From: Catajapyx aquilonaris
Lineage: Eukaryota
Reading direction: 5' to 3'
Length of the DNA: 64,000 bases
NCBI GenBank assembly: GCA_000934665.2
Contig: KZ538129.1
Coordinates: 62,001-126,000 of the forward strand
The position numbers and the translations under genes are program-made. Position 1 is the stretch's first letter. The number at the start of each line of letters is the position of its first letter. Shown one piece after another: positions 8,219-50,727 of this stretch. Under the pieces are notes generated by a model. The model was not told the DNA's origin, did no database searches, and saw nothing but the letters and a program-made list of their open reading frames with translations.

Positions 8219-8261
8219 TCTAATTCGGTCCTCCCCTCTTCTTCTCTCCTTCTAGGTAAGC
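8219..8261 (+). promoter_or_regulatory. candidate recursive splice site (ratchet point) RS1, AG|GT at 8255/8256
   Basis: ctaat branch-like motif, about 25-nt pure pyrimidine tract tcctcccctcttcttctctccttct, then ag|gtaagc. Confidence 0.7.
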
Positions 8262-8309
8262 GTTGACCCTTCTTCGTCATAAATGCCTTGGGGTGGAAGG
8301 AAGCTGAAG
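8256..8309 (+). other. cryptic 54-nt exon defined by RS1 and a downstream donor
   Basis: Ends at gaag|gtaaga (GT at 8310-8311); contains stops in all three frames. Confidence 0.55.
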
Positions 8310-10466
8310 GTAAGATTTATGACGATTTTTTTTTAAAAATTCGGAGACGGCGGGGGAGGGATACATGCAGCGTTGCCAATTTTCCAACATTTGCGTCGCA
8401 GCCTGGCCATCACCATGCGAAAGGCCCTGGTAAGATTAAGCTTGAAATATGAGGCAGTTTGTATGGGTTAGGCGGCTGGGTAGGAAAACAAGGCCGGTTA
8501 GGTATGCAGGAGGTGTCTCCATCACCACTCGCACCTGGAAGGTGGGAGGGAAGAGAGAAAAAAAGGTGTGGATCAGCAGGTGACTACTTGACATCAGAAA
8601 ACATTGGCAGCCTGGTACAGTATTGCCAATTGTAAATCAAAATGCTGCCAGTATTTACAGCCAGGTTTCGATACAAACGTGATCATTAATGAGGTCCCGA
8701 AGACACTTATTACATGAATTAGCAATTAAGGTAAGAGCCGGCTTTGAACCTACTTTTATGACTGTTGTTTACTTCCAACACCTTGTCGGATTATTGCGCC
8801 GCGTATATACACACATTGGGTGGGGGGAAAGAGGGTGAGACACCCCTATCCTTATCGAAGAACATGCAAGAGATCGAACAATGGGGCCTTCCTTCCTGCG
8901 GCTTCCCCCGAGTTTGGATGGAATCAATATTTTGTGCGGCCCGCAATTACATAAACAGCGCCATTGTCGAGTCGTTTTGACAATTCCTTTTGTGAGTAAG
9001 GGGCTGGCGGGTATTATCAGGTGCAAGGATCGCAGGTAGTGCTGGGTAGGTGTTGAAGGGCCATGGGGCTGCTGAAAACGTAATTTGCTAGACCCACCCA
9101 CCCCACCTACCTCACGTGCTGATACCAACTAAGGTGTTCTATATATGTAAGTAATATGGAAGCCCAGGATATACACTATATGGCAAAGACGTGGACCGAA
9201 TTCGAAAGGTGGGATTGAAGGTTCGTGTCTATCACGCGGGATCTTTTTGATGAGCTTATTTCTTGCCGGAGTTATCCAAGGTTGCAGTTTACGTCGGTGG
9301 GTACGTGATTTGCTTGCAGATGACCGGTTGTGTGCTTTCGGAAGGTCGACCCCTCAATGTTCCATTCTGAAAAATAGAAACGGAGTAATGTACTAGGATC
9401 GGACCATTTTTTCCCCCCAACACACGTATACACACACGCAAGTGCACTAATGGACCAAGTTTCTTGTACGCGATGAGTATGCGTAATGGGGCAACAGTGA
9501 CTCATTTATTTTTCCCAGAACTGTGTAGGCACTGTTTTTTTTTTGTAGGCGGTTGTAACAGGATGGACAATAATTAGGGATGACAATAAGGTCGATCACG
9601 TATCTGACAATTTTATTACTCGGAGGTATTTCAGAATAACACGTTATCAAGGGTTAGTAAGTCATTGTAGTGCGTGTGTATGTCACATCAAAATGACTGA
9701 ACCGGATATCAAGCTGCTTGTATTCCAATCAGTACCATTGTTACCGGGAACAACCGCGTGCTCCGATAATATTAATTTCAGATAGTGCTTGTAATTGGAT
9801 ACAATGGTTTTTTTTTTTGAGAGCGATATTAATTGTGGCTATAGTTTTGTGGAATTTTTGGTCTGATGACAGGGGGAATTGACAATGACACAATCTGGTC
9901 GATTGATCCTGTGCATGGAAGCAGGGAATAAAAAAAAAGTGAGTGAGAGCCTGTGAGGCTTAAGTGAGCCGGTTCAATTTCCGTGATGGTCTTTCGTGTG
10001 GTGCTTTTGAAATTCACCGAAGGGTCGATTTTCTGGTAAAGCCCGTGGTCCCTTGGGGGGACTGAAGGGGGGTGGGGGGGCCACACCCCGACGCTTTTTT
10101 AATCGGCCCACGAACCCCCCAAAAAACTTTTTTTTTACCCACAAGTCCACAGAGACAGTAGTCTCTTCCTCCCTTCAAAAAAAGCAGGAAAATATAGATG
10201 GAGAGACGGAGCAGGAGAATTGAATCAACAGCCGAGTATCCCTCGAGGAATGACCAGTGAGGCCCTGTCGGTTTATTAGGGGGAACATTTCATAAATCGT
10301 CAGCAAATACTGGCCCCTTTTTGGGAAACGTGACCTGAGTAAGAAGTATGCCAAATATGGCTGACCAGTGACCACCAGAATATTTTTTTAAAAAATATTG
10401 GAAACGCCAGTAAAAATTATTTAACTTTGTGTGTGGTAGATGGTGTGAATATAATATAGCATGATG

Positions 10467-10514
10467 CATAATATTACATATTTGGTACATAATATTACAC
10501 ATTTGGTGCATAAT
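10467..10514. repeat. 21-bp tandem repeat, about 2.3 copies
   Basis: cataatattacatatttggta / cataatattacacatttggtg / cataat. Confidence 0.75.
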
Positions 10515-11784
10515 GTTATTGATACGCATTTTTTTTTTGAATTTTTGTGTAATTTTTAGTGTACAAAGCCAGAGCCGATTGCGAATACCAGGAAGCTGCT
10601 AGGATGACTTTGCATGGTAGTTGCTAGGGGCGGTAATCCTCATAAATGGCACGACTCCCGTTTGCTGAATCATTTTTCCTCCTCCTACCCCTAGGGGGGT
10701 CATCTCCATATGTTGCGAAACACATGACTTGCAACTATTTTTGGGAGCTTCCTCAACATGTAGTTTTTTTAGGGGAAGGAATTTAGTAGGACGTTGATCA
10801 GAATTCTTGCGCAGTTAATCGTCGAAATCTGCCCAAATCAGATTGCGGAGGGGACGCCCTCTGATTCCATTATGGTGGAGATGATTGATAGGCACTTTGC
10901 ATAGCCAATGCGCCAACGGGGGGAGGATTAAAAATAGAGCAGGACATAACACATTCAACGATTTTCGCGGGCTGTCTGTGAGAATTGCAGACTAGCTGTT
11001 GGCGATCGGAGTGGTAGAGAGAAAAAAAATAGAGCTGCCGGCCCTTTTTCGGGGATCGTGAGCTATTAGCTAAATAATTTCTGGCTAGGACCAAAGGGTG
11101 GGGAGGGGGTTTGAACTCTAGCGCAGGTCAATACTCGGCTCGTCAATTTAAAAATTTCATAGGGGGAACGTGTGAAGGGGGCTGGAAGTGTAATATTCGG
11201 ATCAATTGTTACTCCTTCTGTTTCATTACTTAATGACGCAACAATTGGCTTTCAAAAAAATGTGTGCACGGAAAAAGAGTGGGTGGGATTTTCCACCCTC
11301 CAAAATGGATCTCCTTTAATTGCAAATCGTTTTAATTTTCTGGGGGGGGGGGATCCATTACCTGGGATTGCTTTTTGATGCGCCCCCGTGTTTGGTCAGC
11401 ATCTTGGGAATTTGGGCGTGGGCTGGGTGGAAGAAATGGACGGAAGTAATCTTGGAGAGGCCAGTTGGCGTATATTTTGGCGACAATATTGCGTAAAAAT
11501 TGTGCCTGTTCAAAGTGTACGACAATCAACTCGGTAGCCGCGGTTGGGACGAGCCGCAACCTGTAATATGCTTCCATTAAGGTGATTGCCAAGACCAAAA
11601 TCCTGCAATTTATCCTTGCTAAGAAGTAATTAGGCGGGTGGATAGTGGGGGGGACGACTCTGATGGGCTTCCCCCTAATAAAGTCAGACTGGGCTACCGT
11701 GCATGGCCCCTTTCTATTTTTTTTTCTCCTATCCACCCTACCACGATCGAACAATAAAAAGAGAGCCATTTCTCTCCCCCCCCC

Positions 11785-12014
11785 NNNNNNNNNNNNNNNN
11801 NNNNNNNNNNNNNNNNNNNNNNNNNNNNNNNNNNNNNNNNNNNNNNNNNNNNNNNNNNNNNNNNNNNNNNNNNNNNNNNNNNNNNNNNNNNNNNNNNNNN
11901 NNNNNNNNNNNNNNNNNNNNNNNNNNNNNNNNNNNNNNNNNNNNNNNNNNNNNNNNNNNNNNNNNNNNNNNNNNNNNNNNNNNNNNNNNNNNNNNNNNNN
12001 NNNNNNNNNNNNNN
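11785..12014. other. assembly gap (230 N)
   Basis: N run flanked by poly-C. Confidence 0.99.
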
Positions 12015-15000
12015 CCCCCCCCCCCCCCCCCCCCATCGTATATTGCTGATGTGGGTGTTGAAAAATTGGGTGCAGTGTATGTGCAGCACAGTAGGCGGGA
12101 TAGGTGGACATGTGGAGTCCCCTCTTCGGCAGCCACACCCTATATTTTGAGTGCGGGTTGCATGCCGCAATGCATTAGCAGCGCCATGAATTATGGAGGA
12201 GGGAGCCGACGCGCGGTTTTTATCGGCCGATCTGCATGTATGGAGAGACAATAATGGTGTGACATGGCTGTGTCAATACCTGGGATCCGCGGTATGTGGG
12301 TTTGGTGCACCCGCAGCATACAGGGTGGAGCAGTGACACAGCCAGGTGCCCCTCATAAAGAACTTTGGAAACCGGAATACCTTGCAACAAGTACAATTCA
12401 ACACTTTAGAAATTAATTCATGGTGTCACGACACACTCTCCTTTCCTGTCCATAGGGTGGGGGGAGGGGGTAGGCTCTATATATACCTTTAAAAAAAAGG
12501 GGGGGAAGGGATGTACCTGCTCCAGGTGGCCTTTTTCAACGCTGCGGAAATGCCTCGTCGGACAGCAGCTGCTTCTAACATATGTGTGTTCCAAAAGGGA
12601 AGAAGGGGAAAAGGGGGGGGCACAAACCAGCATTTCCTACTCATTGCCATTTTTCCACATCTTAAGCACTCAACTATGCTTGGATAAGAAGATGGAGGGG
12701 AAGTGTTGTGAAGAGGGAAATTATCTTCCTTTTTTCTTAACGAAATGAGGAAAATGGATGGATTTTTTTTTTTTTGGAGGATAGGGGTCTAAGTAGATAG
12801 CCGGGGGTAATTATGTGGGAAAGCTTGTGTGGATGTTGTGGCCGCCAGGTGTTGGGAGGGAGGTGGAGGAAGAAGAGCGGTGATTTTTTTTTTCTTAAGA
12901 TTTTTTCCCCTGTTCCATCCTCACTGATTTCTTCCCCAAAATCTTGATGTGTTTTGGGAAGAAGGGCTTCGGGCGCTGAGGGGTAGGGAATGGTGTTGTT
13001 TTTTTGAGGCAGGTTCGGTTTTTAACATTCGGTTCAATCATCAGTTCAGACACGTATGGTGGTGTAAGCTGTTTACTGGTTGTCTGCTACGAAAGGGGTT
13101 CATTCGGATGGAAATCGACTGGGAAAAATTCTGGGGACAGTCGGGTAAGGACAAAACGGCTAACAGATGGCGCCACGTACGATCGCCACTACTACAGTGC
13201 CATAACATTAGGAATGATGGGAAGTAAACTTTACCACAGTTGACCAGATGCCGGAGGATGCTTTGCGCGTGAGGGGCGGGCGCAGGAATGTTCTTTTCTA
13301 CCTTCCTCCAACTTTATTCTTTCTGGCTGGCCTGCGGGAGGCCCACACACCTGTTCCATCAACGGCATCAAGTCAGGAATTCCCAGCGAATAGTTTTGGG
13401 GGCCTTGTTACATTAGACTTAAACCCACCCACCAACCACCCCCCAGGACTCTGGTGCCCTAGCAACCCACCTATATTTGAGGGGGGGAAGTGTATAGTTG
13501 TTGAGGTTAGTGAGGTGAGGCTGAAGAGGACCATTCCTCCAGCTTGCTGGCATAATTGTCAGGCCGAGATGGGAAGGATGCCGACGGGACATTTTGCATA
13601 CTGATGAAGGGACTCATAAAAGGCTGTGCGATGAATGGGAATTGGAGGGTTTCACTTGAGGGCGGCTTGGGTGGGTGGTAGGGTGGTACAGGGGAGGGAG
13701 GGGGGGGGTCTCGCCTGTTTTTCCATCCACTTGAGCACTTGTACCGGGGGTCTCGTGTTTATCATAATGGAAAAGCGGGGTGGGGGTACATACTTTGCGG
13801 GGCGTTTAATGTCGGGTCGTTCTCCAAAATGTTATTTCTGAGGTGGGGGTGACCCGGGCGGACAGAGGACACCACCTGGGCTGGAGGGCCAATGTGCAGT
13901 CGAATCACGTTCACCGGTCCGGCTCATAAATTGCTTTAATTTTGATAACTGATTAATATGCATGGAGTAGGCAGGTTGTCAATTAGCCGCGTTGGGCCCA
14001 TAGGAAACTATGTCTGCATCAGCTGGAATTATTACAGAGGGGTGGGTTGTTGCACTATACATGCTCTCATCACTCTACAAGATGACTTTACGTCAGTTTA
14101 ATATTGCGCAGTCTGCCCGTACTATTCATCTTGCAACTGGAGGACAAAAGGCTTTTTTTTTGTGTAGCTGAGGAATTACAAAGCGTAGCCTTGGTAGGAG
14201 GCGAGAAAAGCTTTGTCACCGCTGATCCATCAGGTGAGAGACAGATGTCGGGTGGATATTAGTACTATAGGGCAATAGTTGCTCCTTCCCTTTTTTTCTC
14301 TCCATGATTTTGTGTTTCATAGCTGGGGTAAGCTGTCCAGCGGCCATTTTCCGTCGCTCTCGATCGGATGAATTATGGGAGGCCGGGCTTGGTTGCCATG
14401 GCTACACGGGGGCCTCTCTCTGCTTCTCCGTGATTGATAACTGGAAGGGACAAGAAGGGCTGTGCTGTTTGGATGCGGCTGCGCTGGCGGGCACTGCACT
14501 TTCATCCCCCCCGTCTCACTTCCTGGTTCCTCTCCGCCATTCTCCTTCCATCTGCTCCTATGTCCGGAGATGTAGAGAAAAAGTCAATATGAAAATAGAT
14601 ATAGCCATAGACAGCCTGTACTTGTGAGCAGAATTGCTAACAGTAGAGGCGTTGTTGGCACGCGCATCCAAATTCCCCCGCAGATTTGGTTTACTAACTG
14701 ATGATTGCAAACCGCCGTGACGCCTACAGGCTCTAATTAGCGATGGGATTTGATGAACAAATTGTAATGCGCCTGGATCCAGCTCGTGTGCGGTGTTGGC
14801 TATCAGTTTTCCTAATGACACGTGATTCATAACGTGTGTGGGGGGGGNGGGGGGGGGGGAGCCTTAGTTATCAGGCATCTGCAGGCTGTATGGGTAAAAG
14901 CCCTCTCCACCCACCCCCACCATCACATCCCCGCTTTCATTTGCGGCCATGTCAGAGAGCAACAGCACACCAGGTTCCGCGACGGACGTAAACACAACCA

Positions 15001-17960
15001 GGCTGATAAAGACAGAGAAGCGGTGCTGAATGACAAGCCGACGATACAAAATGCATGGGGAAGCCTGCTAGCTAATCTGGCAAATAGCATATAACCACAG
15101 GCTGCCTGTCGCTCGACTGCGGCCCAACTGGCAGCTAATGGAATCTTGGTATAAATTCATTAAGATATCTATCACTTAATACCCCCGACCCAGGGTTTTG
15201 GGTTGCTTGGCCAGCCCAAAAGCACAGCACACTTTTCGATCCTCACCACTGTTGGCGCTTGCGTACGGGGGTATTACCCACCACCACCTGGGGAGATGAT
15301 CTGATGTGATGAGCCGAGGCTTACCTACTACAGCCAAGATTCCGAATTAATGTTCAGCACGGAGGCATTCCCTTGCGAGTGGCATTCCTCCTTTGAAGTG
15401 GTTCAAGCAGACGTACCACGATGTGTCCAGGCGGAAAATAGAGTCAAAGACATCTCACGGATATGATTGCAGCACTGGGGCGACATTAAAAAAAATGGGA
15501 ACGGAGGAGGAGATGTTCACGGAGGGACACTTTCATGGCGAATAATTCATTCTGGCCACTTGTAAGTCGACGGTTGTCATGCCTGATGCATTAGTCACGG
15601 TGGATTTGCATTCTCGGAGGAAACTGGAACAACGCCCCTCACACTGGTGAAAGACCTTACCTTCTCCTCACAATCCCTTCTTCCAGCGAGGCAAATCAAA
15701 GCGGATATTCTTTCCACGAATTGACAGGTTAAAAGCTGGCGCATTCCCTTCCAATGATGAATATGGGGGTCTGCCCGACTCGATTATGCCTGGAATAGAG
15801 AGGTGTTTTGACTCATATTTGGCGCTGTGAGGCTCGCTCCGGGGCCGTCTCCATCCGGGCATGTGGCGTCAGGCATGATGGCGTCGCGCGCAAGCCGTGA
15901 TCGACTCGAATAACAATTTGGAGTGGCCCCAGGGGCTTGGTACGCTCGGGCAATTAATATTCCGGGGTTATGGATGCAGATGCGAGTGACTTCGTGACCT
16001 AGGCCGGGCCCTGGCCCTCCCCAGGCCACACCTTCCCGACCAGACCCCTCCCCTTGTACCTGCACGGCGAATGAGGCTGTTGGGGAGAAAGGGGTGAAAG
16101 GGTGGAAAAAAAGGGATATGGAAAGGTACAGTGTGCCATAAATCAGGAAGAGGGGGAGGGTTTTCATGGGTGCGTGCATGGCAAACCATCTTGTACAGGT
16201 GATGGCCTCGGCCCACCCTTCTGCACGGTTGCTACACTTGTGCCAGTTCAGTCCTTGCACTATTTGTTTACCGGCAGCGGCCGTTTACATTATTTAAATA
16301 CTGCACGTTTGACGCAACACTCGGGGAGTAATAATTTATCGTACTGTAAAGAAGGCGTGTACAGATGGAGATGATTTATCTTCCCGGCCGGCTGCGGCAA
16401 AAAGTGCGTGAAACATTTACCCTCTTGTCAATACAACCTGTGTCTTAATCGCTGTTCGTTAAAAAAAAGGAGACAGTTAGAAATGGTATGCAGATATGGC
16501 AACAAGACGTGGCGGACAGTTAGTTTAGTGCCCTGAAGCCCCGGAGATAATTTGCAGCAGTGTTGTCTGGGTCAGCACGCGTTTGCGATTGTTTACAACG
16601 ACACGCCAGATGAATCTCAGGGGTGTGGCAGTGGCAATAAAATATTCCGAGGCTTCTGGTAGGTCAGGGCCCTTTTGCTTGTCTAGCTGACACAGGCGTG
16701 TAGTATTTTCACGGAAGGAGGATAAAAGAAATGTGAAACCTGTTTGTTGAGTGTGAATCATCAATTCGTCTGATTGTTTTTGAGAAATAAATAAAACAGC
16801 AGTTTACATATGCCTTGGCCCCCCAGGTCCGTTGCTTAGATAGTAGCTAGATGCCAGCACTTGCGCAAATGGCACTTGTTTACGTAAATTTTTGCGGCGC
16901 GTATACGCAACGGTTGCGTGTCACAAACTGCTCTTTTAAAATCTTCATCCTTTGAGGTCGCCTTCTCGGGCCGTCCTTACTGGGGTAATAATAAAAATAA
17001 CAGTGATTGTAATAATGATAGTGGTGAGTGTGGGTTTGGATGATTATCACGGGGGGAGCCCCTCGATGACTATAGGCACGGCCTATTAGGGCCCTCTCTT
17101 TTAATGATGATGAGTAGCCCTCCAACACACCATATTTTTTGTGTGATGTGTCCGTATGTGAGAAAAACCTCTGGCAGGATGCGCCGGGTTCTCCACACCT
17201 AAACAAGTCTGAAATAGGTTTTATGCAACCGGCACTTGAAGCTGTGCAGACACCCCGACAAGGTGTATTTTGTTAATTGGAGGAAGGGGGTCTTCCCCCC
17301 CCCCCTCCCCCCTCCGAAATAGCTTTGAGTACACCCTGCCTAGGGCCATTCTCCTGGAGGGGCTCGCACGTTAATGAGTGTTAATGCGGTCGGGTAAATT
17401 GTACGTATACCCGGGGTTATTGCGCTAATTCGCCCGTTTTAGCGGGTTTAAATCTTGTCTCGTAAGAAGAACAATAAGAGAGGAGGGGCTGCACACATAA
17501 GATTGGGATCAGGCGGTGGGAAAATGCCTGGAAGGGACTTCATTAAAGGCTTGTATTGCACTTGAGGAGCCCGGTGTTTGAAGTGCCGAGTGCGAGAATG
17601 GCACGCTCTCTTGCACGTCAACAATTTTCTCCAAAGGAAACGGCGTACCTCCCCTTTTTCAATTAATTGTTGGTATTTCCCACTGGTGATGCTTATGTGA
17701 CTGTAAATGTCGGGTTTGATCAGGTTCCTTCCACTCTTTGCTATGAATTGGGTTGTCACACGTGGATGCAGAACGAGCTAATAGTCAAAAATTGGTTTTA
17801 TAGGACACCTCATGGGCATGCGCATCTTGTGTAGCAAGACCATGAGGACTTGGACACCATCACCCATGTCATTGATGTAACATTAAAACCAGAAAAAAAA
17901 CCCACTCCTTTTCAGCATTTAAATTGATCAATAAATGGTTGGTTCTGCATGCCACTTGGG

Positions 17961-17991
17961 CTTTAACTAGTGCCTTCCTTTGTAGGTAAGT
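17961..17991 (+). promoter_or_regulatory. candidate recursive splice site RS2, AG|GT at 17985/17986
   Basis: ctttaac branch-like motif, tgccttcctttg tract, tag|gtaagt (consensus donor regenerated). Confidence 0.65.
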
Positions 17992-19942
17992 TCAGGGAGG
18001 GACTTATTCCCCATAGAATCAAAGTGTGGGTAGAAAGTGTGGGTAGAGTGCATCCAGCCATTTTTTTCCATATTCTCTCCCCCACCCAAAAACCACTAGG
18101 TCTCTGGAGACGATCAGGTTTCGGTGACGGCACAACTGCCACAGCATCGGGTTCCGATTGGGGGAGGTTGGGGGGGGGGGATATAGCATGTGGCTTAATG
18201 CTCATAGATATCGTGTGATGGCCGCACGACAGAGAGAAATGGGGCCTCGTGTAACACTACTGCACTATCCAAAGGGGGAGGAGACAAATATGCAGTGGAA
18301 ATGCGGGCCGTATCGGCACTGTTTCATGATTAGGGGCCTAAGTGTGAATTTGCGACACAGTCCCTCGGATGATAGACGGGGGGACTATAAATATTTGGTG
18401 GATATCATTCGATTCGTTTTATCAGGAGGTATTAACTGGCACATGTGTGGGGAATGTGCAAGTGTGCGTCCCCTTTTTGCCCATTAGGATTATGAATGAG
18501 TTTGTGAAAATCCTTTTTTGAAAGTCCTTGTCGTGACGTGACTCAGCTTCAGCTCAGCTGTACATTTGTCCTGGTAATAACTACCATCATCCGATTCCGG
18601 AAACCGCGGCCGGGCTCCCAACATGTAATTGTTCAGGGGCAGATCTACCCTGGAGGACACTGCCAGAACACGCGTCCAAAAGCGGGTTGCATCGCGCAAC
18701 CCTAACATGGTAGCACAAAATCCGTGCTGGGGGGAAAAAAAGAAGGAAGACAATCATCCTCTTCCGTTTTTGACTTCCATGATAATACGCATGTAACCTG
18801 TCATTGGACAACTAGAAATTACTGTCGTCGCGGTCTCACACGCGTGGCAGGTCCAAGAAATGGCGAATTTCAGCGTCTTGATAAGGCTGTGGGTGGGCTG
18901 CCATTGTAAGCTTGATGATAAGTGGTTATGTTTAAATTTTTTTGTGTGGTGTTTTCCCACCGGTCATAGTGTCAATGCAAGTAAGGGCAGCAAAAAATCA
19001 TTTCATTCCAAGCATACACTGCAGCCTCACTCGCATACTTAAATAGCCATTATGTAGTTAATTAAGATCTGATTACGCCCCGGTAATGATTTCCTGCACG
19101 AGGTGCATTCAAGTGCCAACCAAACCTAAGGGGGCATTCACAGGGAAGCGCACTGGAACTTTGCATACCAGACAGGATGTAGCCATGCGTTTTTAGGCTG
19201 TTTTTCCTTGATATCTTTGGGAGACTGCGTGGCAACGCGGTAAGACTTTTTGGGGTTGTTGGAAGGCCAAAAAAACGAAGAAGTGAAGGTAAAGGAAAGG
19301 GGGAGATGGGGGCGCAAGATTAGCAGGGCGAGTCTGAAGGCTGAGAAAGAGAGATGAAGAGATGGCATGAGCTTGTCTGTCCTATGCCCTCCCCTGCTGT
19401 TTATTCCAAGAGAGAGACTCTTGGGATGGCCCACCTGGACATTGTCTCCAAGTCCGAGAAGTGGAGGCGGCGGCCTCCTTTTTGGAACGACTTCTCTCAG
19501 GGTCAGCGGACATTGCCGACACTTAACCTTGCTTCATTTGCCTAATCTCATTTGCATGAGGAGGGGATACGCTGCCACTCCCCACCTTCGCTGCATCTAA
19601 CTTGGGATGTTAGGAGGGGCTGTTGATGTCTGGCTGCTGGGGTTCACGCTTTTGAATTTCCCGCCGTGCGTGTCATGCTGGGGGTTGAATTTGCATTTTG
19701 GTAGGGGTCCCATGAGGAATGATTACGCCAGGTAAAAAAAAAAGTTAAAAATTAATTTACAAATAATCAAGCCTGCTATTTGTATGTTTGTTGTAATAGT
19801 GTGTAGTAACCTACCCTGTACGCTAATGTGATATAAATTGAAATGTAACGCAATTTGAGCAGTTCAGTTAATTGTCAAAATCTGGTAATTATGCAGGGTT
19901 TATCACGGCCGAGTGGACACCTCTAATGTATTTTAATTACAG

Positions 19943-19972
19943 GTCTCTACTCGGCCCTGTTACACCCTACAA
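19943..19972 (+). CDS. candidate 30-nt alternative microexon of hth (GLYSALLHPT)
   Basis: Branch-like ctctaat, T-rich tract and acag| acceptor, consensus caa|gtaagt donor; 30 nt, open in the phase-1 frame required by the exon at 28810. No expression evidence. Confidence 0.4.
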
Positions 19973-26500: not shown

Positions 26501-27070
26501 TAGTACAAGTCAGCACAATTTAACCAGCACTTTTCGAGTATTATTGTCGCCATAAGAGTGTTTCGGTCATTGGGTAAATGACCCATTGTTTCCCCCCAGG
26601 AGCAGAAGAGTTAGAAATGTTCGTCGCATGCGAACCTTCCATTAGGCCCGGGCGACAGTTACTAGAGCCAACTATCCTCCCTCCAAGGCAAATCTTGAAA
26701 CGCGCGTGTGTATATGTATATATCCTCCAGCGTAAAATCGACTGAAAATGTCCCTCTGGGTGGGTGCCGCAAACAGCCGGCCACTAAAATAGTGATAGAT
26801 GCTTCCGGGCGCCAGACTCTATTCCAGGTGAGAATTAATGAGCGTGGAAATTAGCAAGTGGAAATGAAGTGCGCGCGCATCCTTCAGGTTGGGTCGGTGC
26901 TGCCCCTGGTGGACAACGGCCATTAAAATTGAATCCGTCGCATATGTCCGTCTTCGGCGTGGTCATTAATATGCGATAAAGAAGCCGGCTTGTGATGTAT
27001 GTTTCAAGGCTGTGAGGGGAGAGGGGGGGGGGTGAAAGGGGACGAGTTCTTGTCATGTTTCCACCTGGCG

Positions 27071-27096
27071 ACTAATTTATTGTCTTGCAGGTAATA
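27071..27096 (+). promoter_or_regulatory. candidate recursive splice site RS3, AG|GT at 27090/27091
   Basis: actaat branch motif, ttattgtcttgcag acceptor, immediately followed by gtaata. Confidence 0.5.
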
Positions 27097-28809: not shown

Positions 28810-28958
28810 GTGACGCCAGCAATGCCAGTATCGGCAGTGGAGAGGGCACCGGTGAAGAAGACGACGACACTGGCAGCAAAAAGAACCAAAAGAAGAGAGG
28901 CATCTTCCCCAAGGTGGCCACCAACATCCTGCGAGCTTGGCTCTTCCAACACCTCACA
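28810..28958 (+). CDS. hth: homothorax/Meis coding exon (linker, homeodomain N-terminal arm and helix 1)
   Basis: Acceptor ttttctccccag|, donor |gtaagt; 149 nt, phase 1 to 0; translates (G)[49 protein letters not shown], near-identical to arthropod Homothorax as I recall it. Confidence 0.96.
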
Positions 28959-38341: not shown

Positions 38342-39430
38342 GCCCAGTGGCCCGTGTGGTGGCAGCACCGTACTGTACTTTAAAGTACGCTCGTACGAAT
38401 TGTTGCCTGTTGGGTGAGAGGGTGCGATATCCTGGCAGGGAAAGCTATTCCGAAATGAGATGTGGAGACATCCATCACAAGTGGTTGGCGAAGAAAGATC
38501 CCTCCCTTGCTCTAGTCCCTGCCTTGTCGCTATGGCGACGGGGCAAAGCCGCGCCCCCCTGCGGAATACATTCTTCTCAGCTGTCTGGCGGCAATGTCCG
38601 TGAAATTGAAAATTTTCGCTATTCCGTGCAATTACGGATCTCATTGAGGGATTTTTTTTTCCTTCTTCCTCTCATCCTCTCCCCCCTTTCTTTCCCTCCC
38701 CCCTATCCTGCATGCACTTCCAATTCCGGCTCCCAGATGATGCATGTCGTCGGATGACACGGGAGACATTTTACGGTCCCCCTCACCCCCTTGCTTTCAA
38801 GGGGCCCCCGTTGCGGTCGCCGGGCCATCACTTCACATTATGAAGAGTGTAGGAAATGCTGCAAGGCATCCGTCCCCCCAGGGGCATGAGCCGGGGGTGC
38901 CCAAATACGTGATCCTTCTGACACTGCCTGCTGGGAACAAAAGATTCGAGTATTTTTTTTATTAAAAAAGAGCAACAATGTGTAGTTGGTGTCCTCTGAT
39001 TCTCCTGTTTCTAATGGAAAAGTTTGGGAGGGATATAGGGTAGGGAAGTGGCTTTTTTTGCGAGAAGTCACATCCAGGGAGGGGGCAGTGACACTCTTTG
39101 ACAGCTGGACTTGGGGGCCCGAGGGATTTGCGAAGAAATGACACTGGCAAGAGGGGGTATTTCGGGGCAAAGGGGGGACGTGGGCTCATCACTGCTGCCG
39201 TCGTCAAATGAGAGCCGACCAAGCGCTAAATGCCTGGCTCTGGAGCAAAACTGTCATCCGACTCCGCCTCCGTCGCGTTTTTTCCCGTCATCCTGTCAGT
39301 CATTAGATTCTGAGGGGACCTGGTGGGAGGATGGCCACCACTCTTTTGTTCTTCTCCCGGAAGGCGATATGATTATTCCCATTGGTAGGGGGAGAGACCC
39401 CTCCAAAAAAAAGAAGAGGGGGACTGAACG

Positions 39431-39432
<2 letters not shown>

Positions 39433-39459
<27 letters not shown>
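39433..39459. repeat. (GAT)9 microsatellite
   Basis: Read directly; about 80 nt upstream of the second homeodomain exon. Confidence 0.9.
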
Positions 39460-39461
<2 letters not shown>

Positions 39462-39508
39462 TGTGGTGATGACGATGCCAGCTCATTTATTCAAGTTTTT
39501 GAATGTGA

Positions 39509-39619
<111 letters not shown>

Positions 39620-40083
39620 TGAGTACCACTCGGGGTCGAAGGTGCGGAAAGTTGTGTAGGTGGGTGTGGAGAGGACCCGAGAGAAAATCGTCTCTGCCAG
39701 ACGTGAATCAATGGCTGGATCCGCCTGGTTCTGGCAGGGACCATAGATCATGGTGTGGTCGCCCGGAGGACCGCTCTTGTCTTTTGTCATCTGGCCGAGC
39801 GAACTCTAATCAGATGAGCATGTGCCACCGAGGGGGGAACTCCGAACCAGTGTTTTTGCAGCGGGTCCGTGATTAGGCAAAGATGGCCGCTAAGTTGATC
39901 TCCGGTCAGGTTTATGCCCGACAGGTGAATAGAGCTCGAGTATTTATATGGGGCACGAAATTCAAGATGGCGGCTAAGTTGATCAGCTGGTTGGACACCC
40001 CAACAATGGCGAGTAGTCGCGGTTTATGTTGGACAGGTGAGTTATTCTGTGCGCCAATGGGTAGAAGGGAGAAAGAGAGAGAG

Positions 40084-40300
40084 NNNNNNNNNNNNNNNNN
40101 NNNNNNNNNNNNNNNNNNNNNNNNNNNNNNNNNNNNNNNNNNNNNNNNNNNNNNNNNNNNNNNNNNNNNNNNNNNNNNNNNNNNNNNNNNNNNNNNNNNN
40201 NNNNNNNNNNNNNNNNNNNNNNNNNNNNNNNNNNNNNNNNNNNNNNNNNNNNNNNNNNNNNNNNNNNNNNNNNNNNNNNNNNNNNNNNNNNNNNNNNNNN
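40084..40300. other. assembly gap (217 N)
   Basis: N run between a GA repeat and poly-C. Confidence 0.99.
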
Positions 40301-41520
40301 CCCCCCCCCCCCTCCCTCCCCCGACATCACAGCCATCCTTCTTCTCTCCCGGGCCAGACAGAGTTACGTCCAAAACACCATCGCTAGTGAGATATGCCTT
40401 GGGTGAAGATCGCTTGGAATTTGAGGGAGAGAAGAATTTTAAAAAGGATCCGTACACCATGGATGGCTCTAGCGGCAAGAGCCTGAACTTGGACACAAAA
40501 GGGCCACCCTGTTGCTAACATTTCTGGAGCGATGGCCCATCCATCTGGAGGTGGGAAGAGGCGCAGTCTCTTCTCTCCTGCGTGGCTTACGTGCCAAGGG
40601 TATATTTAGGGGATGACAAATATTCGTACGGAAGCCGCAGCCCGCCTCCTCTTTGCTGGGACCCTGGGAACCCAGGAAATTTTCCCAAAACGCTGCAATT
40701 GGATTGAGGGGAAGGGGGGGGGGGGNGGGGGGGGGGGGATGGAAAAAGTATCTGGCCCCCTCCGTGCGACTAAACATCGGTCGGGTCAAGGAGGGATAAC
40801 TAAATGATGGTTCAGAAGAAAATGGGGGCGCTCACCTTTATACCACATGATCGGCTTGATAAGGAGTGACGTTGTGAAAGGACCTGGAAGGAAATTTATG
40901 GGATTTCACGTGTCTGGAGGTATAATTACATGCTTTGTTGTCGGGGATCTCTGTATGATCCTCTTCCTCTCATCCACCTGCATGCATTCCCCGCCTCCCA
41001 GATGGAATGTTACAATAAATTACGCTCGCAGACAATTTTCTTCGGAGATCATCTCGTGACGCTCGGTCAAAGTGCAGGGCCTCCAAAAAGTCGTGGGTAG
41101 GACAAGGCATTAGCATTATTAAGTTTGTGCCTAATGGTGGCCCTCCAGACATGATTTATCGATACGGCGCTAGTTTTTTGGAGCTGGATTATTCCCCCAT
41201 TTTGGACTATGTGGTGTTTGCTAGAGCGTGGGTTGGGAGCCATTTGTCGCGGGCACCATCCGTTCATCCTGGTCCGATTGTCATTGGTGTGGGTTGGCAG
41301 CAGTAGAGGGTTTGGTTTCCCAGCGGGGCCTGAGAGAGGGCGCCATTTGGCCATGCCGCCAGCAGCGCCATTGTTGCGCCCACCATAATCTAATTAGCAG
41401 CGAAAGTTGATCAGTAATTAGTCGATTAATCAATCTGTTTTCCATTTGGACCGTCCCGTGTGCGCCATTAGGGGAAATTAAAGCGGGCCCAGGCCCCGTG
41501 GCAGCAGCAGCCGCCTCTCC

Positions 41521-41524
41521 CTCT

Positions 41525-41560
<36 letters not shown>
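41521..41560. repeat. imperfect (CT)n microsatellite
   Basis: Read directly. Confidence 0.85.
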
Positions 41561-44500
41561 GTTGCCTCTGCTGATGCTGATGTTGCTGCTGGCGTTGCGA
41601 TCAATGCTGCAGCTCAGCAGGGTACACGGGGGATGGGGCTCCCGGATCCTCACTCCCCACCACCCACCGCACCTAACTCTATACATACGATCCTCTGTCA
41701 CAACAATTAGATTCCAAGAAAATTAAAAAATTCATTACTTCCATATCAGCCCAATTTCCGCATTAGCTGAGCTAGTCAATAATGGACGTACTGCCAGATT
41801 TGTGCGATGGATTTACGTAGAAATTGTGCAATTTCCTAGAAACTATGAAAGTTATATGTCGCGGATTGAATTTTAATAGCGGAGACTATATGGGGCAGGC
41901 ATGACCCGAGGTCGCGTTCTCTAATCGACTGCATCGGCTGGAGGTTATATGAGCCTTGAGCTGAAATTGGCCGTATAAAAAGGGGGCGGCAACGTCGCCT
42001 TTTGGCCCCAGCTGCCTTTTCTCCGCTTGTAATTTACGGATCCGTTTTCATTTTCAGTACCATTTCGGGAAGAATTCGCCCCCTAATGTTTCTCTTGCAA
42101 AATGGCCCTCGGAGGAGTCGTATGAACGGCCTAATAGCTTACCAAATCGCCACCGAAACACCTTTTTAATGAACTATTGTAGCAGGGAATGAAAATGGGA
42201 GGGGGCGCCCAGCCCGCCCCCTCTTTTGTTAGGTTTGGCTTGGGAGAATGCTAGCTCATTTTTAGATAGTGTGGGTCTACTAGGGACCCACGATTTTTTG
42301 GACATTTTTATCAGGCTGAAATTTGGGGGAAGTATACGGTATATGAGGAATTTTCATATTTTTTAAACTATAGTTGGCCCACATGCTAGGTCAACGGTCA
42401 TGTAATTTAATCTCAATAAATATTAGGCGTAAACTTGGTATCAAACTGTGTGATTCCAGGCGAAATCTGGTATGGAATCAGCCAGCAAGTTGTGGGAGAA
42501 TAATAGGAACTTCTGCTCTCTAGAGGTCAGCACTGTGATTTTTCACCTCAAATCCACCCGTTTTTCACCATTTTTTTTTTGTACAATCACATGTTAGCGG
42601 ACTTAACCTTATTTTCCCCTCCAGCGAGAGAAACGAGGACGTGCGTCTTGGAAAATGTTTAGCATCCCGCACATTCCTGAAGCGTATGAGATGAGAAAGG
42701 AATGCAGGAATCCAGTCCGTCGGTGGTGGCTGAGGAGTAGGATAGTAGAGCACCACCCACCTTTTCCCCTCCCACCCACGACCCCGTATAATCCGGGGCT
42801 TCGCTCTCAGAAACCCGGGGGTGGTGGGAGGGGTGGTTGATCGATTCCAGCAGCTTCCAGGATTTATCAATTCCTTCCAGAGGTAGGGAAAAAGGAACCG
42901 GAGCGTAATTTTACGGGCTTCCGGAAAAGAGCGCCGACCGTTTTATTAGCTTCGGAAGCTTGCTGGAGCCCGCTGGACGTGGCCACTTTCAATGCAACCC
43001 AAAACCCGGGGTGTGTGTATGTGGAACCGGGTTCCGGACTAATTCATTTGCTCCGACAGCCACTTACATTATTCTAGGGATTTGGTCCTGCAATGTTCAG
43101 GGTCGAGTAGCTTAATATTGTGAAGGCACATTAAAACTAAAGGGGCTGGTGTAATATTTAAAGGGGGTGAGAGGGATGGAGTAAACTAGCAGATTTTGGG
43201 TAATGGAGTCAACACGAATCGTGGTTGTCAGCTTGGTCCTCGAAATCTGTAGCAAAGTTTGATGATGACGTGAAATTTTAAACATCCTGTTATTCCTCTG
43301 GGTAAGGAAGCATAGGGACTCGGCCACTTCAACAAAGGTTATTTTTGCGGTTGCCCCATCCGAAAATATCGCGGCTGGCTCGCCCATCACGGAGACGTAA
43401 ATAAGTTGTCTATTTTGGCACCTGTGTGGGATTTTGCTAGAACAGAAAAAGAGCAGGAAAAAATATTCGGGGAAGTGCGGGGGTAGATTTGCCAATCCGC
43501 GGTCCATCTCCTTTGGGTCCTGTATAGGTGCAACGACTTACCCACCCTTTGATCCAACTGCCCTCCTGGTTGACTGCCGCTCTTTCGGATGTATCGAGTC
43601 GAGAAATTATATCGCCCGCGACCCATTTAGTCGGTAGAAGAGACTCGGTTCATCAACAGGGATGCTCTCAGTGGTACATGGGGAGGGCGATGAAGGCATG
43701 TTTTCTGTCCCGGTGTGTTGAAACAGCCTCTCGACATAAGTCACCCGTGTGTAAACTGTTTACAACGACGCCATTTTTTTGAAATTTGCCCATCAATTTT
43801 GCCGGGCAGGTTGGCGGGGCAGGTGCGTACTAGCTATCGGCCGACCGCCATTTTTTTCTCCCGTGATTGGAAGTGAATCAGCCGAATCCGCAAAAGACCT
43901 GAAATTTTGGGTGGAGTAGAAGCTGCGGTTCCTTGCAGATGGCGCCTGAGGCATGGGCTTGGGCGGCACTTGCAGAGGACACGGCTTATTAATCGGTGGT
44001 GTAAGTTGTACATTTTTATTGTGCAATTCAGGGCGAATTTAGCTGCGGCGGCGTGTTGTGTGCTCCGTCAGGGGGTAGGTGGCCTGGGAAATCAGAGGCC
44101 GAGCACAAGCCCCGAGCAATCATCCCAGGGCTCGGTTGGCTTGAAGGCAGAAACAGGGCCGAGGGAGGAGAGGATCATGGGAGGCAGCACGTCAGAAAAT
44201 AAATTTCCCCGCTTGCATTCCTAATGATTTCCTCCGAGACCGAATGGAATACAGTGGGCAAAATGTTTTATTTCAATTTAGCACGCAAGTCAGCAAGCGG
44301 CCCTCTCAGAATAATGCTAAGGCCCCAGCCGTTTTGCCTTAATGCTTGCACATAGTCATAAAAGTGAATTGGGAGGACAAAGATGCCGCAGGAAAAGGAG
44401 GAAGGAGGGCTGAGGTAAGCGGCTGGAATTATCCAACCAAACCGCTGAGGTGCGCTGCATATACACGGCTGGCACCATTGTGAACTAGACTTGCTTCTCA

Positions 44501-47500
44501 CCACTATTAAAATTGCTTATATCTTCCGGGCGAAGCCTTTTGCAGCCATTATATCCCGTAGAATTAACCATTAGGATTATCTTGCCTGCCCATTTAGCTA
44601 ATTGCAAAGCATTCACGGAAAGCTAGAATTACCGCCATTACATTCACCTCGTGCGGGATTCAGGCAAAGAGCAGAGGCGAGGAAGGGGAGGATAAAAGGT
44701 AGGGGAGGATGAGAGGGAAGAGGGGAGGGCTGTGAAGGGGGGAGGTGTGTTTGCAGGCTTTGAAGATAGGACAGTTGGGGACCATGGAGAAAAGAGCCTC
44801 GTTTGTGGTGGCGAGGCTGCGCGGTTATGCGCCAAATCTGTTGTTACCACTCTTGCCGAGGACTGATTGGCCTGCTTAGCTCCACTGGGGGTAGGGGCGG
44901 CTAAGCTGCTGCTGGCCTAACAATCGGGGACCCCAGGATTTTTGCACAGAAATCGGGACGGCGGATAATGAACCCATTTTGGGGAGAGCACCGGCCCATT
45001 CGTCCAAGGCACGTCAGAGGGGTGTGGCCACAAAACATCCCGCAGATCTTATCCCCAAACGTGCAGGTATGTCGAGGTCCGTGTTTGGCGCTGATTTACT
45101 GCCGCTCCAGCTGGCAACCCGTGAGTGGAGCGCGTGGCTCCATCTGGGCAGGCAGGGAAGGCCGCCATCTTGGGGTCTCCTGGGGAGCGGCCGTCTCCCC
45201 GTCTCCGGAGAAACGCAATTTCGCGCAAAAACAAGAGATTAGGGCCAAAATGGGAGCAGCTGCAATTAAGTGTAGTGCTGGCATGAAGGGCTGGGGGATT
45301 TGGGAGCGGGGGGGCTGGCTTGCCTGGCTGGGCTGGCTGCCTGGCTGCGCATTCACCATCCAGCAGCAGCCATCCCTGGGCTAATTACCCTCTACTTCGA
45401 TCGCTCGCGCCTGCTGCATGGCTGCGAACACAGCTAAGCCGATTGCTTTGCCCCTCCCCACCTCTTCCAGCACCTCCAAATGCCGCAGTGTCAATGGATG
45501 AAACATTTATGCCATCGACATATCTAGTCCACCAAAGAGGGACGCTGGGGTTTCCTCCCCACCGGCTCAGAATAAATTGTGCTTGTCAAAACGCAACAAT
45601 ATCCTCCTAGGGAAACCGATTTCAGAGTGGAAGAACCCGTCGGAATGCGTGCTTCCCTTTGTTTCCTTCCCATGACAAAAAGAGGGGGGTCCGGACCCAA
45701 ATTCGGGACGGATCTCTCAATTAATCTGTCAGCATGATTGTACACGGGGCTTAGACCCCCTTGTGACGAGCCTGCGGACAGGATATAGATGGCTGGAGAC
45801 AGGGTTGTCATTTGTCAGCCTTGCGCCAGAAGGGCAGCAAATAATTAGAGCACACGCCATCTTGTATTGACACGAGAAAAAAGGAAGCCCCGGGGCCATG
45901 TGCCACTGACATTTTGGGGCACATCCGGGGCATCCGAAAATGGTGGTCTCACTGACATAAAGTATAAGGTAGGAGCAAGCAATTTGTTGACTCGCTTTTT
46001 CCTCCTGGTGGGCACAAGTAGCAACAACTAATAATGGCGGCTGTGGGGGAAGAAAGGCACCCTTTTCCCACTGCTGCTATCCCCAGCAGTAGAGGTCTGT
46101 CTTCATTCATCACCAAAAGACAAGCCATTGACAGGCAAATTGCCAGGGAAGAGCCGTTTGCTGTTAGTGGAGCAATTCCGCGCTTTGGCCTTCACGTAGC
46201 TAAGATAGATGGTGCTGAAGGTGTGGGTTAGTTCGCCGGAGGAAGTGGATCCATACGTTATTTGCCACGGCCCGTCTCCTGTGGAATTGGACTTTACCCC
46301 CATCCACTTGGGTTTTCTCAACTTTTTGCAGCTGTACTTTCCCCATGCCTATATAGCCAGCAGGAGAAAATGCAATTGTTGGGGGAGCCCAGTGGTAAGA
46401 TGAACCGGTTGGGCGATCGGCATTGTTTGTTTCAACTGCCAAAAAGTGGGAATATTGTATCTGTACACATGAAACGCACCCGAGGGGAATGTCAGGTTGC
46501 AGGTTGAACACATAATAAAAGTTACCCCGCGGATAGAAGAGAAAACTGATCGGACGAGCTGCTGTCAACACACCACGGTATAGATAGCAAAACCGTGCCG
46601 GAGGAGACCCGGCCCACTCCCTGGCTCTCCCCCCAAAAAATAACCTTCCGTAAAAATAGATAGGCGAATAGTGGAGTGACATATCCCTGGTTGGCCAAAA
46701 AATGGCGCTTCATCCATGGCAACAACAAATCATTATCGGAAACGTGGCATTCATGGAGGCTGAGCTTGGCTCCGGCGCCCCCTGCTGCATTCTGGACATA
46801 GCACCTCACTGATAGGACACGTTCGGGTTTCGGGCTCTGGCTTGTCACATCCGCCTGGGATTACACTCACATATGCGTACATGCACGTCATGCACATCGG
46901 CCTCAGGCGCACTGCACGGATTTGCACATAATGCGTTTGGCTTTCGGCTCTCTGGTCAGTACCGCAGTCATGACTTGATCCAGCGGGTTGTACTGGCTAT
47001 CGGCATACTGTCCGATCCACGCAACTATTTTCATCAGTTCAGCTTGCAGATTTGAAGTAGAATTAGGCGATTCAGTGCAACTGAAGATGTAACCTTATAC
47101 ATGGACGCTTCAGTAATAAGAGATCACAAATGTCAATTTGGGCGCCCACAATTCAAGGGTGTGTAGTTACAATGCAGTTATCAGTCAGCTTTTGGCTTTT
47201 AAAACCGCGGGTGATTGGCACATTAATCTAGGTGAAATCCTTGTCGATACAGTGATATCGCCTTTGACATTGCATAGCCCGTTATTAGTGCAGGGAATTT
47301 GTACGGTCCCAGACGGGGCCCGTCACATTTTGGGAGGTTTTCACACACACAAAAATATAGGGAATGATTCCGTCAGCGATGGTATCGGAGTTGATGGAAC
47401 CTGATCGCTCCTGTAGCGACCTGTCTGTTCATGCAGTGAAACGGAGAAAACTCCCAACTGGAAAGGAGAAGTAAGGATTGTGGCAGGAGATTAATGGCTG

Positions 47501-50500
47501 CCATCAGGGAGCATAAAACACGCAGCTCGCCTGGATAAAAGGGGGGAGTGCCGAAGAGAGTTTCTGGGGAGGGGTCAGAAGAACCGATTCAATAAGATTT
47601 AATCCCTCTTCCTCTTAGGATTTATCCCCCCCACCACTTATTGCATGCGGGAGGGGAAAAAAAATCCAACTCCAAAAGGTAGGCCTTCCCAGTTTTGATG
47701 TTCGCCATTGTAGGGCACATCAGCTTAGACCTCCCAGGGCATTACGTTGATCCATTCTCAGGATTAAGATTATTTTTTCTGATTCATTTCAGTTTAGTGT
47801 TATGTTTTGGGGGTTGGGGGGTTTCAGGTCGAACCCGTGCTTTAAATTTTAATAGTGTGGTTGGGGTTGAATCATGAAGTGATAAATTTAAAATAATTTT
47901 ATTCGGTTGCTAAAGAGACAGAAGAGTTTGTTTGTAATTGTCTTCAGCCGGAAAATGGTTACTGGAAGTTGTGCAATAGTTTTTCGCACCTTTTTGACTA
48001 ACTATTCAGGGTTGAACCATTAATTACAAGGGAAATGGGCATTTCTGGACGTAAAGACTTGATGACACGTGGAAAGCTGGTAAATAAAGAGCTAGAACAA
48101 GGCCTTGAGGATGAGTAATGGCCGCATTGGTCTCCGGCAGAATCTGTAAAAGTGGACTGGGGCCGAGATAAATGGGGAGAGAGGCCAGTGCAGAATATCC
48201 TGGATCCCAGATGGCAAGACCCAAGTGTCTGTTCCAGTTGAGTCGGACATTGTTGTTGCTCCGGGCCGGCCATTGTTCCGGTCGTGTCCATCGACCAATT
48301 TGGGCCTGCAAGTCGTGTCTGCGAATTCCGATATCCCTGGGACCACCGCACAATCAAACCGGGCGTAGTAATGGAACAATTGAACGGGACAAATCAGAGT
48401 GTAATTTTAGCATTTCCACCTCAATGGGCTGAAAGGGGCCATGTTGCACTTATGCGCACACGTACCCAAAGTAGCCATTGTTCACTCGGAACCGACATGG
48501 GATTCAATGTATTTTCGCACACCATGGCGAAATAGCATCAGGATGTTTCCAGTCACCTGGGACGCCCCGGAATTTTATCCTATGTGTGTTTCCCTGAAAA
48601 TGACCTTATCACATTTCCGACCAGTGATGCGAACGTACAGGTAGGCGCTACCGGAGCGATGATCAGACGACCCCCCACCTGACCGCGGGAGGCTGGGTAT
48701 CCCGCCCGTACATGATCCTCGTGCTCTTGCAAAAGGGGGGCAATTGACTTGTCATGGGGAAGTGATAGAGCCCGTGGGTGGCTGGCGGGAATGGGATCAC
48801 CCTGCTGCCCACCCCATGTGTCATTATTTTTATCCCGTGTCTTTTGTCTTGGCTGACGGCTCCGGCGCACCCCCGCCACTCTCGCCCTCTGCAGCATCAC
48901 GCCGAGACATCTGGCGGCCTCTCCTCTCAGCTCCGGAAGTCAGTTACCCCCCACCCACCCCTCCTCTCCATACCCATATCTTGTCAGATGGGCACCCCCG
49001 ATTAGCGCTTCCCCCCGGTGGGAAAACTGTCTGCAGATAGTGGGGGGAGGGAAAAAGGCTGCCATTTTCGATCCAAATCGCCCTTCTGCCATTTTGAATG
49101 TCAACGCGATTTTTGCGTCCGGGCTAATAGATTTGATATTGACAACATGGCAGCCATCTTATCTCTTTTCCTGTCGACCCAGGCGGGGTTTATGTGCCTG
49201 GGATTTTCTACATGCAGCTCCAAGCCACATGCACCTACAGTATGTAGTTTGACCCCCCGTGGAGGTGGTCCGGGGCCGAGAACGAGCCCGATAAGGGCCA
49301 GCAGGGGGCCTCATGTTACACGGGGACCTCCCGTGGCCTCCCAACTGCATTCCGCTGCCACACCAAAAGAGAGGCGCTGCCCCCCAAGCCCACCTACCTT
49401 TTTCCCCTCACAACCACCCCCCACAGAAACTTCTTTCAAATTTGGCCAGGCGGGGGCCACCGCGGCCTAACGAGGTCAAACACCGCCAGAAATGGGATAG
49501 CACACAGAAGGTTTTCAAAAAAATTAAGTCGCATCTAAGGGTTTAATATCCATCAAAAAGTTTGTACAAAATTAATTGCACGGTGTGCTCAGCGGGGTTT
49601 TTGCGCGGCATATTTTATGTTCCCAAGTTTGGTAGGCCTACATGTTGGCAAGGGTAGAAAAAATAGGACAAGAGATGATGGCCATTGAGATGCGGCTCAC
49701 GTAGCGGCAAATCAGGCGGCGCTGTCTTCCTTCTGGCCATGCATACGCCGCCATCATTTCTGGATGAAGGCAAAAGGGGGCCTTCGTTGCGTATGCCCAA
49801 GCACCAACCTCAACTCGCATGTGTTATTGTGAGATAGCGGGCTCTGCATCTGGTTGCCCCATCACGTATCATGTTGGAGGGCAACTCTTAGATGCGGTCT
49901 GATTTTGGCTGGAGGAAACTTCTGTTCCAGTAATTGTTGCACTTTGCCCCCAAGTTGGTGTTATAAGTCATGTCAAATATATCAGTGGCGCAGTTGTAGC
50001 CTGGGGGCCACGCCCTGCGCGACCTCGCTGCTAATTATCCACTGACATCTGTACGCGCGGGGGCTGTTTACTTATCGGAAATTTGCTCAATATTTGCAAG
50101 GGCGCAAGTTGGGCCGGGGCTGGAGGGGGTGCGCTCGGATACTACAGCTCCCTGGGTCACCATTATTGGGCCATAACGGGCGCCCTCGGGGTCACCGCCC
50201 AGCTTGAGCCAGGCAAGTGGCGCTCCTCCACTGAAACCCGTACTATCCTGGTGTAGTAGTAGTCGTAATTCCATTTGGGCCCGTATTCACCATCATCTCC
50301 TGTTAATTATGCTCAGCAGTTGGACCGGAACCTGACTCAGAAGCCTCCTAACAGGATCCCCGCATTGTAGCAGATCCTACCCCCATCCTCAATTGTGGAA
50401 GTGTCGGAGCGAGCCTGGTAATTGAACTTGCACAAATTGAATCCATTGTGCAAATGGCTGCCGTCCCCCCTTCCCCGCCATCCCTCCGTCATCTCTGGAA

Positions 50501-50708
50501 AGAAACTAAGCATTAAAATTCAGACCCTCCCCGGTTTCCCTACGCCACGGCCGGTACCTACAGGGGTTGACATTGTAATTAGGAAATGGAGCTGTTTGCC
50601 CAAGTAGGCCTGGTCCCGCGGTGCTTGAATTTCCGTACAATCGGATTAAAGCATTAGGCTGTTGCTTGAGGGTTTTTGGTTAGGGGGAAAAGAGGGGGAC
50701 TGCGCAGA

Positions 50709-50727
50709 TTTTTTTTTGCAGGTGAGC
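50709..50727 (+). promoter_or_regulatory. candidate recursive splice site RS4, AG|GT at 50721/50722
   Basis: T9 tract then gcag|gtgagc, near the middle of the 24-kb intron 39619-63639. The tract is short and another AG lies just upstream. Confidence 0.5.

Follow-up and report, generated by a model that had tools for sequence, protein, structure and literature searches.

The region analyzed here is a 64,000-nucleotide (nt) stretch of the Catajapyx aquilonaris genome (NCBI GenBank assembly GCA_000934665.2, contig KZ538129.1, positions 62,001 to 126,000 of the forward strand), hereafter called the window, whose plus strand carries the homeodomain of a Meis/hth gene split over three exons (A, B and C; Table 1). 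The long introns of this gene contain candidate recursive splice sites, or ratchet points, at which a 3' splice site directly abuts a 5' splice site in the sequence AG/GT (the slash marks the splice point throughout). Three such sites, named here by the last position of their acceptors (8255, 17985 and 50721), combine most of the features described for ratchet points in Drosophila, occur on the sense strand only and are evenly spaced. We weigh below whether they may serve in stepwise removal of the hth introns.

Identification of the host gene as hth, which had been proposed from the sequence, was confirmed by several comparisons. Exon A, the counterpart of ancestral Meis exon 8, matches the homeodomain of Meis1/Meis2 in PDB (E = 1e-7) and exon B matches the Pfam family Homeobox_KN (5.5e-10). 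This Homeobox_KN-type homeodomain is interrupted at the conserved ...NNW/FIN... intron in the manner of a Meis/Hth TALE homeobox gene. A contig scan provided 80 metagenome loci that contain hth exon A, with exon A identities of 59-96%. Several of these loci are of mRNA type, exon A running directly into B and B into C, and they were the source of full-length Hth proteins with which all three window exons align by tblastn. In the alignments inspected (those of loci L009, L047, L014, L017, L023 and L065) the Hth proteins matched exons A, B and C of the window and nothing else. Specifically, tblastn with the proteins from mRNA-type contigs found neither the MH-domain exon nor the ...RPPSSS...SEA exon on the plus strand 5' of 28809, and a search of the window for short fly Hth motifs gave nothing convincing. 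Exon A used as a protein query among longer proteins found nothing. Since an upstream coding exon is absent from the window, the intron preceding exon A is at least 28.8 kilobases (kb) long. The A-B intron is an unsplit 10,583 nt and the B-C intron is 24.0 kb. Sites 8255 and 17985, and also a further AG/GT site at 27090, most likely share the one long intron before exon A, barring very small exons that escape recognition by sequence.

The original prediction held that AG/GT sites at 8255, 17985, 27090 and 50721 form a regular ladder of recursive splice sites in hth. All four were read directly from the sequence (8254-8257, 17984-17987, 27089-27092 and 50720-50723), and the segment lengths of 9730, 9105, 1719, 10583, 11103 and 12918 nt are exact when measured from exon ends. 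Plain AGGT is common in the window, with 196 occurrences on the plus strand and 176 on the minus strand, and two of the true hth acceptors (28809 and 63639) are themselves AG/GT. A ratchet motif was assembled from published fly features, namely YAG/GTRAG with TT at positions -6/-5 and at least 9 pyrimidines among the 14 positions from -20 to -7, and its counts were compared with block-wise Markov simulations of order 1, 3 and 5 (300 each). The full motif is present three times on the plus strand, at 8255, 17985 and 50721, and not at all on the minus strand. The Markov means predict 0.05-0.11 per strand, and three matches were reached in 0 of 300 simulations. A second filter, in which heuristic acceptor and donor matrices must each contribute at least 2.5 bits, selected the same three plus-strand sites and again none on the minus strand; the same filter found three matches in the 80 hth loci of other organisms (359,559 nt, both strands), which is 3 per 719 kb. 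Across both filters the expectation is 0.05-0.27 per strand versus three sense sites and no antisense site. Adding only the TT requirement to YAG/GTRAG leaves four sites on the plus strand and none on the minus strand, and this dinucleotide accompanies 4 of the 7 sense YAG/GTRAG sites versus 16 of all 196 sense AGGT sites. Pseudo-exons of 0-60 nt with such sites at both ends served as a control and are about equally frequent on the two strands (16 on plus, 12 on minus), but the three with zero length are on the plus strand only. Scoring of both strands against simulated controls is in line with the prediction for 8255, 17985 and 50721, with no antisense counterpart, and does not support it for 27090.

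Table 1. Exons, candidate ratchet points and associated elements in the window, ordered by position.
Feature	Position	Strand	Remarks
CTAAT branch-point-like motif	8220-8224	+	Branch A 32 nt upstream of AG at 8255; no AG between motif and 8254
Uninterrupted 25-nt pyrimidine run, ending TTCT	8229-8253	+	Just before AG
Candidate ratchet point 1, TAG/GTAAGC	8254-8261	+	Strongest composite site in window; passes both filters
Putative cryptic recursive-splicing exon (RS-exon), 54 nt	8256-8309	+	Stops in all three frames; purine-rich 3' half
Donor AAG/GTAAGA that would close the cryptic exon	8310-8315	+	Heuristic donor score 11.1 vs 9.6 for the 8255 ratchet-point donor
Candidate ratchet point 2, TAG/GTAAGT	17984-17991	+	Perfect donor, moderate pyrimidine tract, YNYTRAY-like branch motif
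Third site of the original prediction, CAG/GTAATA	27089-27096	+	Good acceptor (CTAAT, TT at -6/-5), weak donor (0.2 bits)
hth exon A	28810-28958	+	Homeodomain start; ancestral Meis exon 8; ends ...RAWLFQHLT/gtaagt
hth exon B	39542-39618	+	Homeodomain; ends ...VNNW/gtgagt
Candidate ratchet point 3, T9-GCAG/GTGAGC	50720-50727	+	At 46% of the 24.0-kb B-C intron
hth exon C	63640-63707	+	Homeodomain end, FINARRRIVQPLIDQSNRAGAS/gtaagt

The spacing of the sites also distinguishes the three strong sites from the four-membered ladder. The three sites delimit segments of 9,730, 10,824, 11,103 and 12,918 nt with a coefficient of variation of 0.10, a value as low being obtained in 0.65% of 200,000 random placements. 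When 27090 is included the ladder becomes uneven owing to a 1.7-kb step, and the same evenness figure rises to 9.7% of random placements. The claim of even spacing therefore stands for three sites, which also match the fly pattern, and does not stand for four. Fly recursive sites are reported to lie near intron midpoints, dividing introns into pieces of ~9-15 kb, and the mean segment measures 9.1 kb (PMC6110457); the segments of 9.7-12.9 kb found here are of such an intermediate size, and 50721 lies close to the middle of its intron. As this spacing rule is published for flies (PMC6110457), the suggestion that even spacing reflects a limit on the span that is efficiently spliced is not new.

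The individual sites differ in how completely they resemble ratchet points. All four have abutting splice sites and TT at -6/-5, both halves pass the filters in three (8255, 17985 and 50721), and the pyrimidine tract is very strong at 8255 and moderate at the others. Additionally, the three strong sites all lie on the sense strand of very long introns. At 8255 the acceptor scores 11.6 bits, versus 2.9-6.6 bits for the three real hth acceptors, and the putative 54-nt cryptic exon that follows, when read in the phase set by exon A, encodes Gly-Lys-Arg and then a stop. Of the elements of this short cryptic RS-exon layout, 8255 has all, 50721 has a moderate donor at +130, and 17985 and 27090 have no donor scoring above 5.6 within 250 nt. 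Joining of 50721 to exon B would rebuild TTG/GTGAGC, which is one base off the real exon B donor. Site 27090, judged by its sequence, is probably not a ratchet point. A different plus-strand site, CAG/GTGAGA at 26827, located 263 nt upstream of 27090, has TT at -6/-5 and a poor pyrimidine tract. Downstream of 17985 by 36 nt there is an exact 13-nt tandem duplication (two copies of AAAGTGTGGGTAG at 18021-18047) with a weak GTGTGG donor in each copy.

Fly ratchet points have juxtaposed splice sites with a prominent pyrimidine tract, and 196 of 197 have TT at -5/-6 (10.1101/006163). Their cryptic RS-exons are ~50 nt, usually out of frame and always skipped (PMC8605326). In fly Bx and kuz, a weakened ratchet-point donor is reported to shift splicing towards inclusion of the exon. 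The window sites are similar to this class (10.1101/006163, PMC6110457, PMC8605326) in that a strong acceptor and a strong donor abut at AG/GT after a long tract with TT at -6/-5, in that they occupy the sense strand of very long introns of a developmental gene with segments of ~10-13 kb, and in that an exon of about 50 nt follows the best site, 8255. A reading by eye of S1 Table of PMC6110457 showed that one of its validated fly sites shares the 12-mer TTCTAG/GTAAGC with 8255. The window sites differ from the fly class in that their tracts are C/T-mixed whereas those in flies are T-rich, and in that two of the three lack a strong downstream donor. Of particular relevance, recursive splicing is documented for Drosophila hth itself, the ratchet point of which has been used as a minigene reporter (PMC8605326). 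A look-up by FBgn number found no entry for hth among the S2-cell sites tabulated in PMC6110457. The fly hth ratchet point and 8255 belong to the same gene family and share an unusual relation, a ratchet-point donor that scores below the donor of the cryptic exon (PMC8605326). Outside of flies, a recursive site has been predicted in the 230-kb intron of locust NPF1 and is accompanied by a U2AF65 pull-down (PMC8892266). That case resembles ours in that a fly-type site was predicted from its motif in an arthropod other than a dipteran. It is unlike ours in its pull-down, the hth sites being predicted from sequence statistics only.

On balance, and by a small degree, we favor the view that 8255, 17985 and 50721 are intronic ratchet points of the hth pre-mRNA. 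It is probable that at least one of the three is used, use of at least two is about an even call, and use of all three is doubtful. The full four-step ladder as first proposed is very improbable. Stepwise splicing of hth, which was the core of the original prediction, is therefore consistent with the sequence at the three sense-strand sites, with their TT dinucleotides, long introns and segments of 9.7-12.9 kb, and is unsupported at 27090. By analogy with fly work, each site would first act as a 3' splice site. Ligation of the upstream exon to the site would then rebuild a 5' splice site, such as ...G/GTAAGC or TTG/GTGAGC, which in turn would remove the next segment. In this manner the intron preceding exon A (at least 28.8 kb) and the B-C intron (24.0 kb) would be taken out in pieces of ~10-13 kb and the mRNA would retain no trace of the process. 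At 8255 the 54-nt cryptic exon would probably assist the first step through exon definition. An exon-definition step via a cryptic exon is reportedly what Sibley et al. described in 2015 for vertebrate RS-exons, and such a step is the likeness to what we propose for 8255. The difference is one of scale, as vertebrate introns and segments are far longer than those of the window.

An alternative that we regard as unlikely is that the sites are edges of ordinary, unannotated small exons and not zero-length ratchet points. For example, good splice sites bound 8256-8309, and its inclusion would yield a homeodomain-less Hth ending ...Gly-Lys-Arg-stop. There is precedent for exons in this part of the gene, since arthropod hth carries one to three lineage-specific exons in the intron before exon A and homeodomain-less isoforms are known (PMC3140891). 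Drosophila hth also has, in the same region, a micro-exon 8 of 3 nt (AG/ATG/GTAAGT), and its counterparts in other insects are 3-9 nt (PMC7392893). The micro-exon resembles the window sites in having an acceptor that nearly abuts GTAAGT and in lying between the MH-domain and homeodomain exons, which is the intron of 8255 and 17985; it is unlike them in that it adds 3-9 nt to the mRNA, whereas the window sites would add none (PMC7392893). Furthermore, two mRNA-type relatives, L009 (L009:1868-1945) and L010, have 54 nt inserted precisely at the junction that precedes exon A, and the insert encodes GKQWNQWQRREERTRCYS. However, the cryptic exon at 8255 has stops in every frame, which separates it from expressed RS-exons and micro-exons such as Ubx mI/mII and hth micro-Ex8, and its similarity to the L009 insert is limited to the first six bases. 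A search of the plus strand up to 28808 yielded no micro-exon of 3-12 nt that would preserve the frame. An ordinary exon also has no need of a donor directly at its acceptor, and yet there are three such cases. This alternative moreover overlaps with the expressed RS-exon type and is to that extent compatible with recursive splicing.

Some further observations concern the same intron and its relatives. The first six bases of the L009 insert, GCAAGC, are one base off the donor at 8256. The insert encoding GKQWNQWQRREERTRCYS is absent from L047, L014, L017 and L023, and the inserts of L009 and L010 probably represent the lineage-specific exons that lie between exons 7 and 8 of the ancestral Meis gene. 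On the sense strand of the window a possible 5-nt micro-exon that does not preserve the frame, CATAG/CTGGG/GTAAGC, is present at 14322-14333, 94 nt downstream of CAG/GTGAGA at 14233.

Several observations weigh against recursive splicing at the three sites. The core YAG/GTRAG taken alone is not clearly enriched, with seven occurrences on the plus strand and three on the minus strand where simulations expect 2.6-5.4. Both the thresholds of the motif and the matrices are heuristic, and some of these choices were made once the sites were known, the pyrimidine threshold among them. Downstream of 17985 there is no strong donor within 250 nt (none above 5.6, only the weak GTGTGG), and 50721 has only a moderate one (AGA/GTAAGG, +130) and no clear branch motif. 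When the introns were compared with the 80 related loci, only exons aligned to the window. Only 17985 survives if candidates must score at least as high as the poorest genuine hth donor of the window; requiring the level of the weakest genuine hth splice site was rejected as overly stringent, given that all three genuine donors are near-consensus. Finally, two of the distances are only approximate owing to long gaps of N at 11785-12014 (230 N) and 40084-40300 (217 N).

The heuristic nature of the filters also bears on a second alternative, in which the three sites are chance motif matches, never used, in 64 kb of intron rich in pyrimidine tracts. There are 372 AGGT sites to draw from, thresholds were set post hoc in a single genome, and 17985 and 50721 are each moderate on one half. 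Long pyrimidine tracts ahead of AG exist on the antisense strand as well (8534, 12486 and 53816), and a first crude score of 371 AG/GT sites, which ranked 8255 first and 27090 about 37th, placed two antisense tract-rich sites in the top five. Coincidence would nevertheless have to produce three sense and no antisense sites under two filters that expect at most 0.27 per strand, the concentration of TT in sense YAG/GTRAG sites, and an unusually even spacing. Chance is disfavored by the 3:0 asymmetry and the spacing, post hoc though these statistics are, and we hold it to be improbable as an account of the three sites. A third possibility, that they bind U2AF or U1 as decoys or regulatory elements, perhaps suppressing cryptic splicing or premature polyadenylation, and never complete recursive splicing, draws on the general functions of U1 and on the presence of strong U1-type donor sequences within a long intron, but it leaves the acceptor abutting each donor and the regular spacing unexplained and is highly improbable.

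One of the antisense tracts deserves separate mention given its location 280 nt from 8255. At 8509-8534 of the minus strand a very strong pyrimidine tract precedes CAG/GTGCGA, which combines a strong acceptor with a poor donor; viewed on the plus strand, the same sequence is a purine-rich block. Among the 80 related loci, a level-2 or level-3 ratchet motif was found 0 times on either strand. One relative, L004 (L004:10599), has an exon A that is 96% identical and no exon B within the 10 kb after it. Its intron after exon A contains, 9.2 kb in, one sense composite site, GTAG/GTGAGG, that lacks TT.

All the elements invoked here are already in the literature: recursive splicing and its motif, the mechanism by cryptic exons and, for flies, both the hth case and the rule on spacing. 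The sites described here would leave the known mechanism unchanged. Likewise, with the locust NPF1 case in print (PMC8892266), their extension to another arthropod lineage, as suggested by the original prediction, is an increment and not a first. The locust site was the one non-dipteran arthropod case found in the literature, and a genome-wide arthropod study outside Drosophila was not found, though subscription journals and supplements may hold more. If confirmed, stepwise splicing of the Catajapyx gene would mean that fly-type zero-nucleotide recursive splicing also acts on this developmental gene outside Drosophila, sharing with the fly process its motif, the arrangement of the cryptic exon and a step of ~10 kb. 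Such a finding would suggest that the conserved long introns of Meis/hth have been tied to stepwise removal since ancient times, and it would allow simple motif-based annotation of ratchet points in other arthropod genomes. A more ambitious combination of these elements can be envisaged, which we consider a long shot. In this combination recursive splicing of hth would be old in arthropods, and long Meis/hth introns 7 and 9 would be removed in steps of ~10-13 kb in this species too. One intron 7 site, 8255 or 17985, would represent the zero-length state of insect micro-exon 8, and its 54-nt cryptic exon would act as a switch to a homeodomain-less Hth ending Gly-Lys-Arg.

The surroundings of the candidate sites were also inspected. 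A nested gene or transposon reading frame does not account for them, as 0 of 28 long open reading frames in the window reach the Pfam cut-off, and Rfam and tRNA scans of the window found nothing. When compared within the window, the candidate sites lie in unique sequence and not in repeats. There are seven runs of N in the span from 8219 to 50727 and eight in the whole window. Both long gaps are flanked by long homopolymer runs of C or G, and several single N's also fall in such runs. A (TGA)n repeat of ~16 units occupies 39432-39477, 65 nt upstream of the exon B acceptor. In exon C, at 63672-63674, the homeodomain of the window departs from its relatives, reading RRRIVQPLIDQ where six of six full-length relatives have QPMIDQ.

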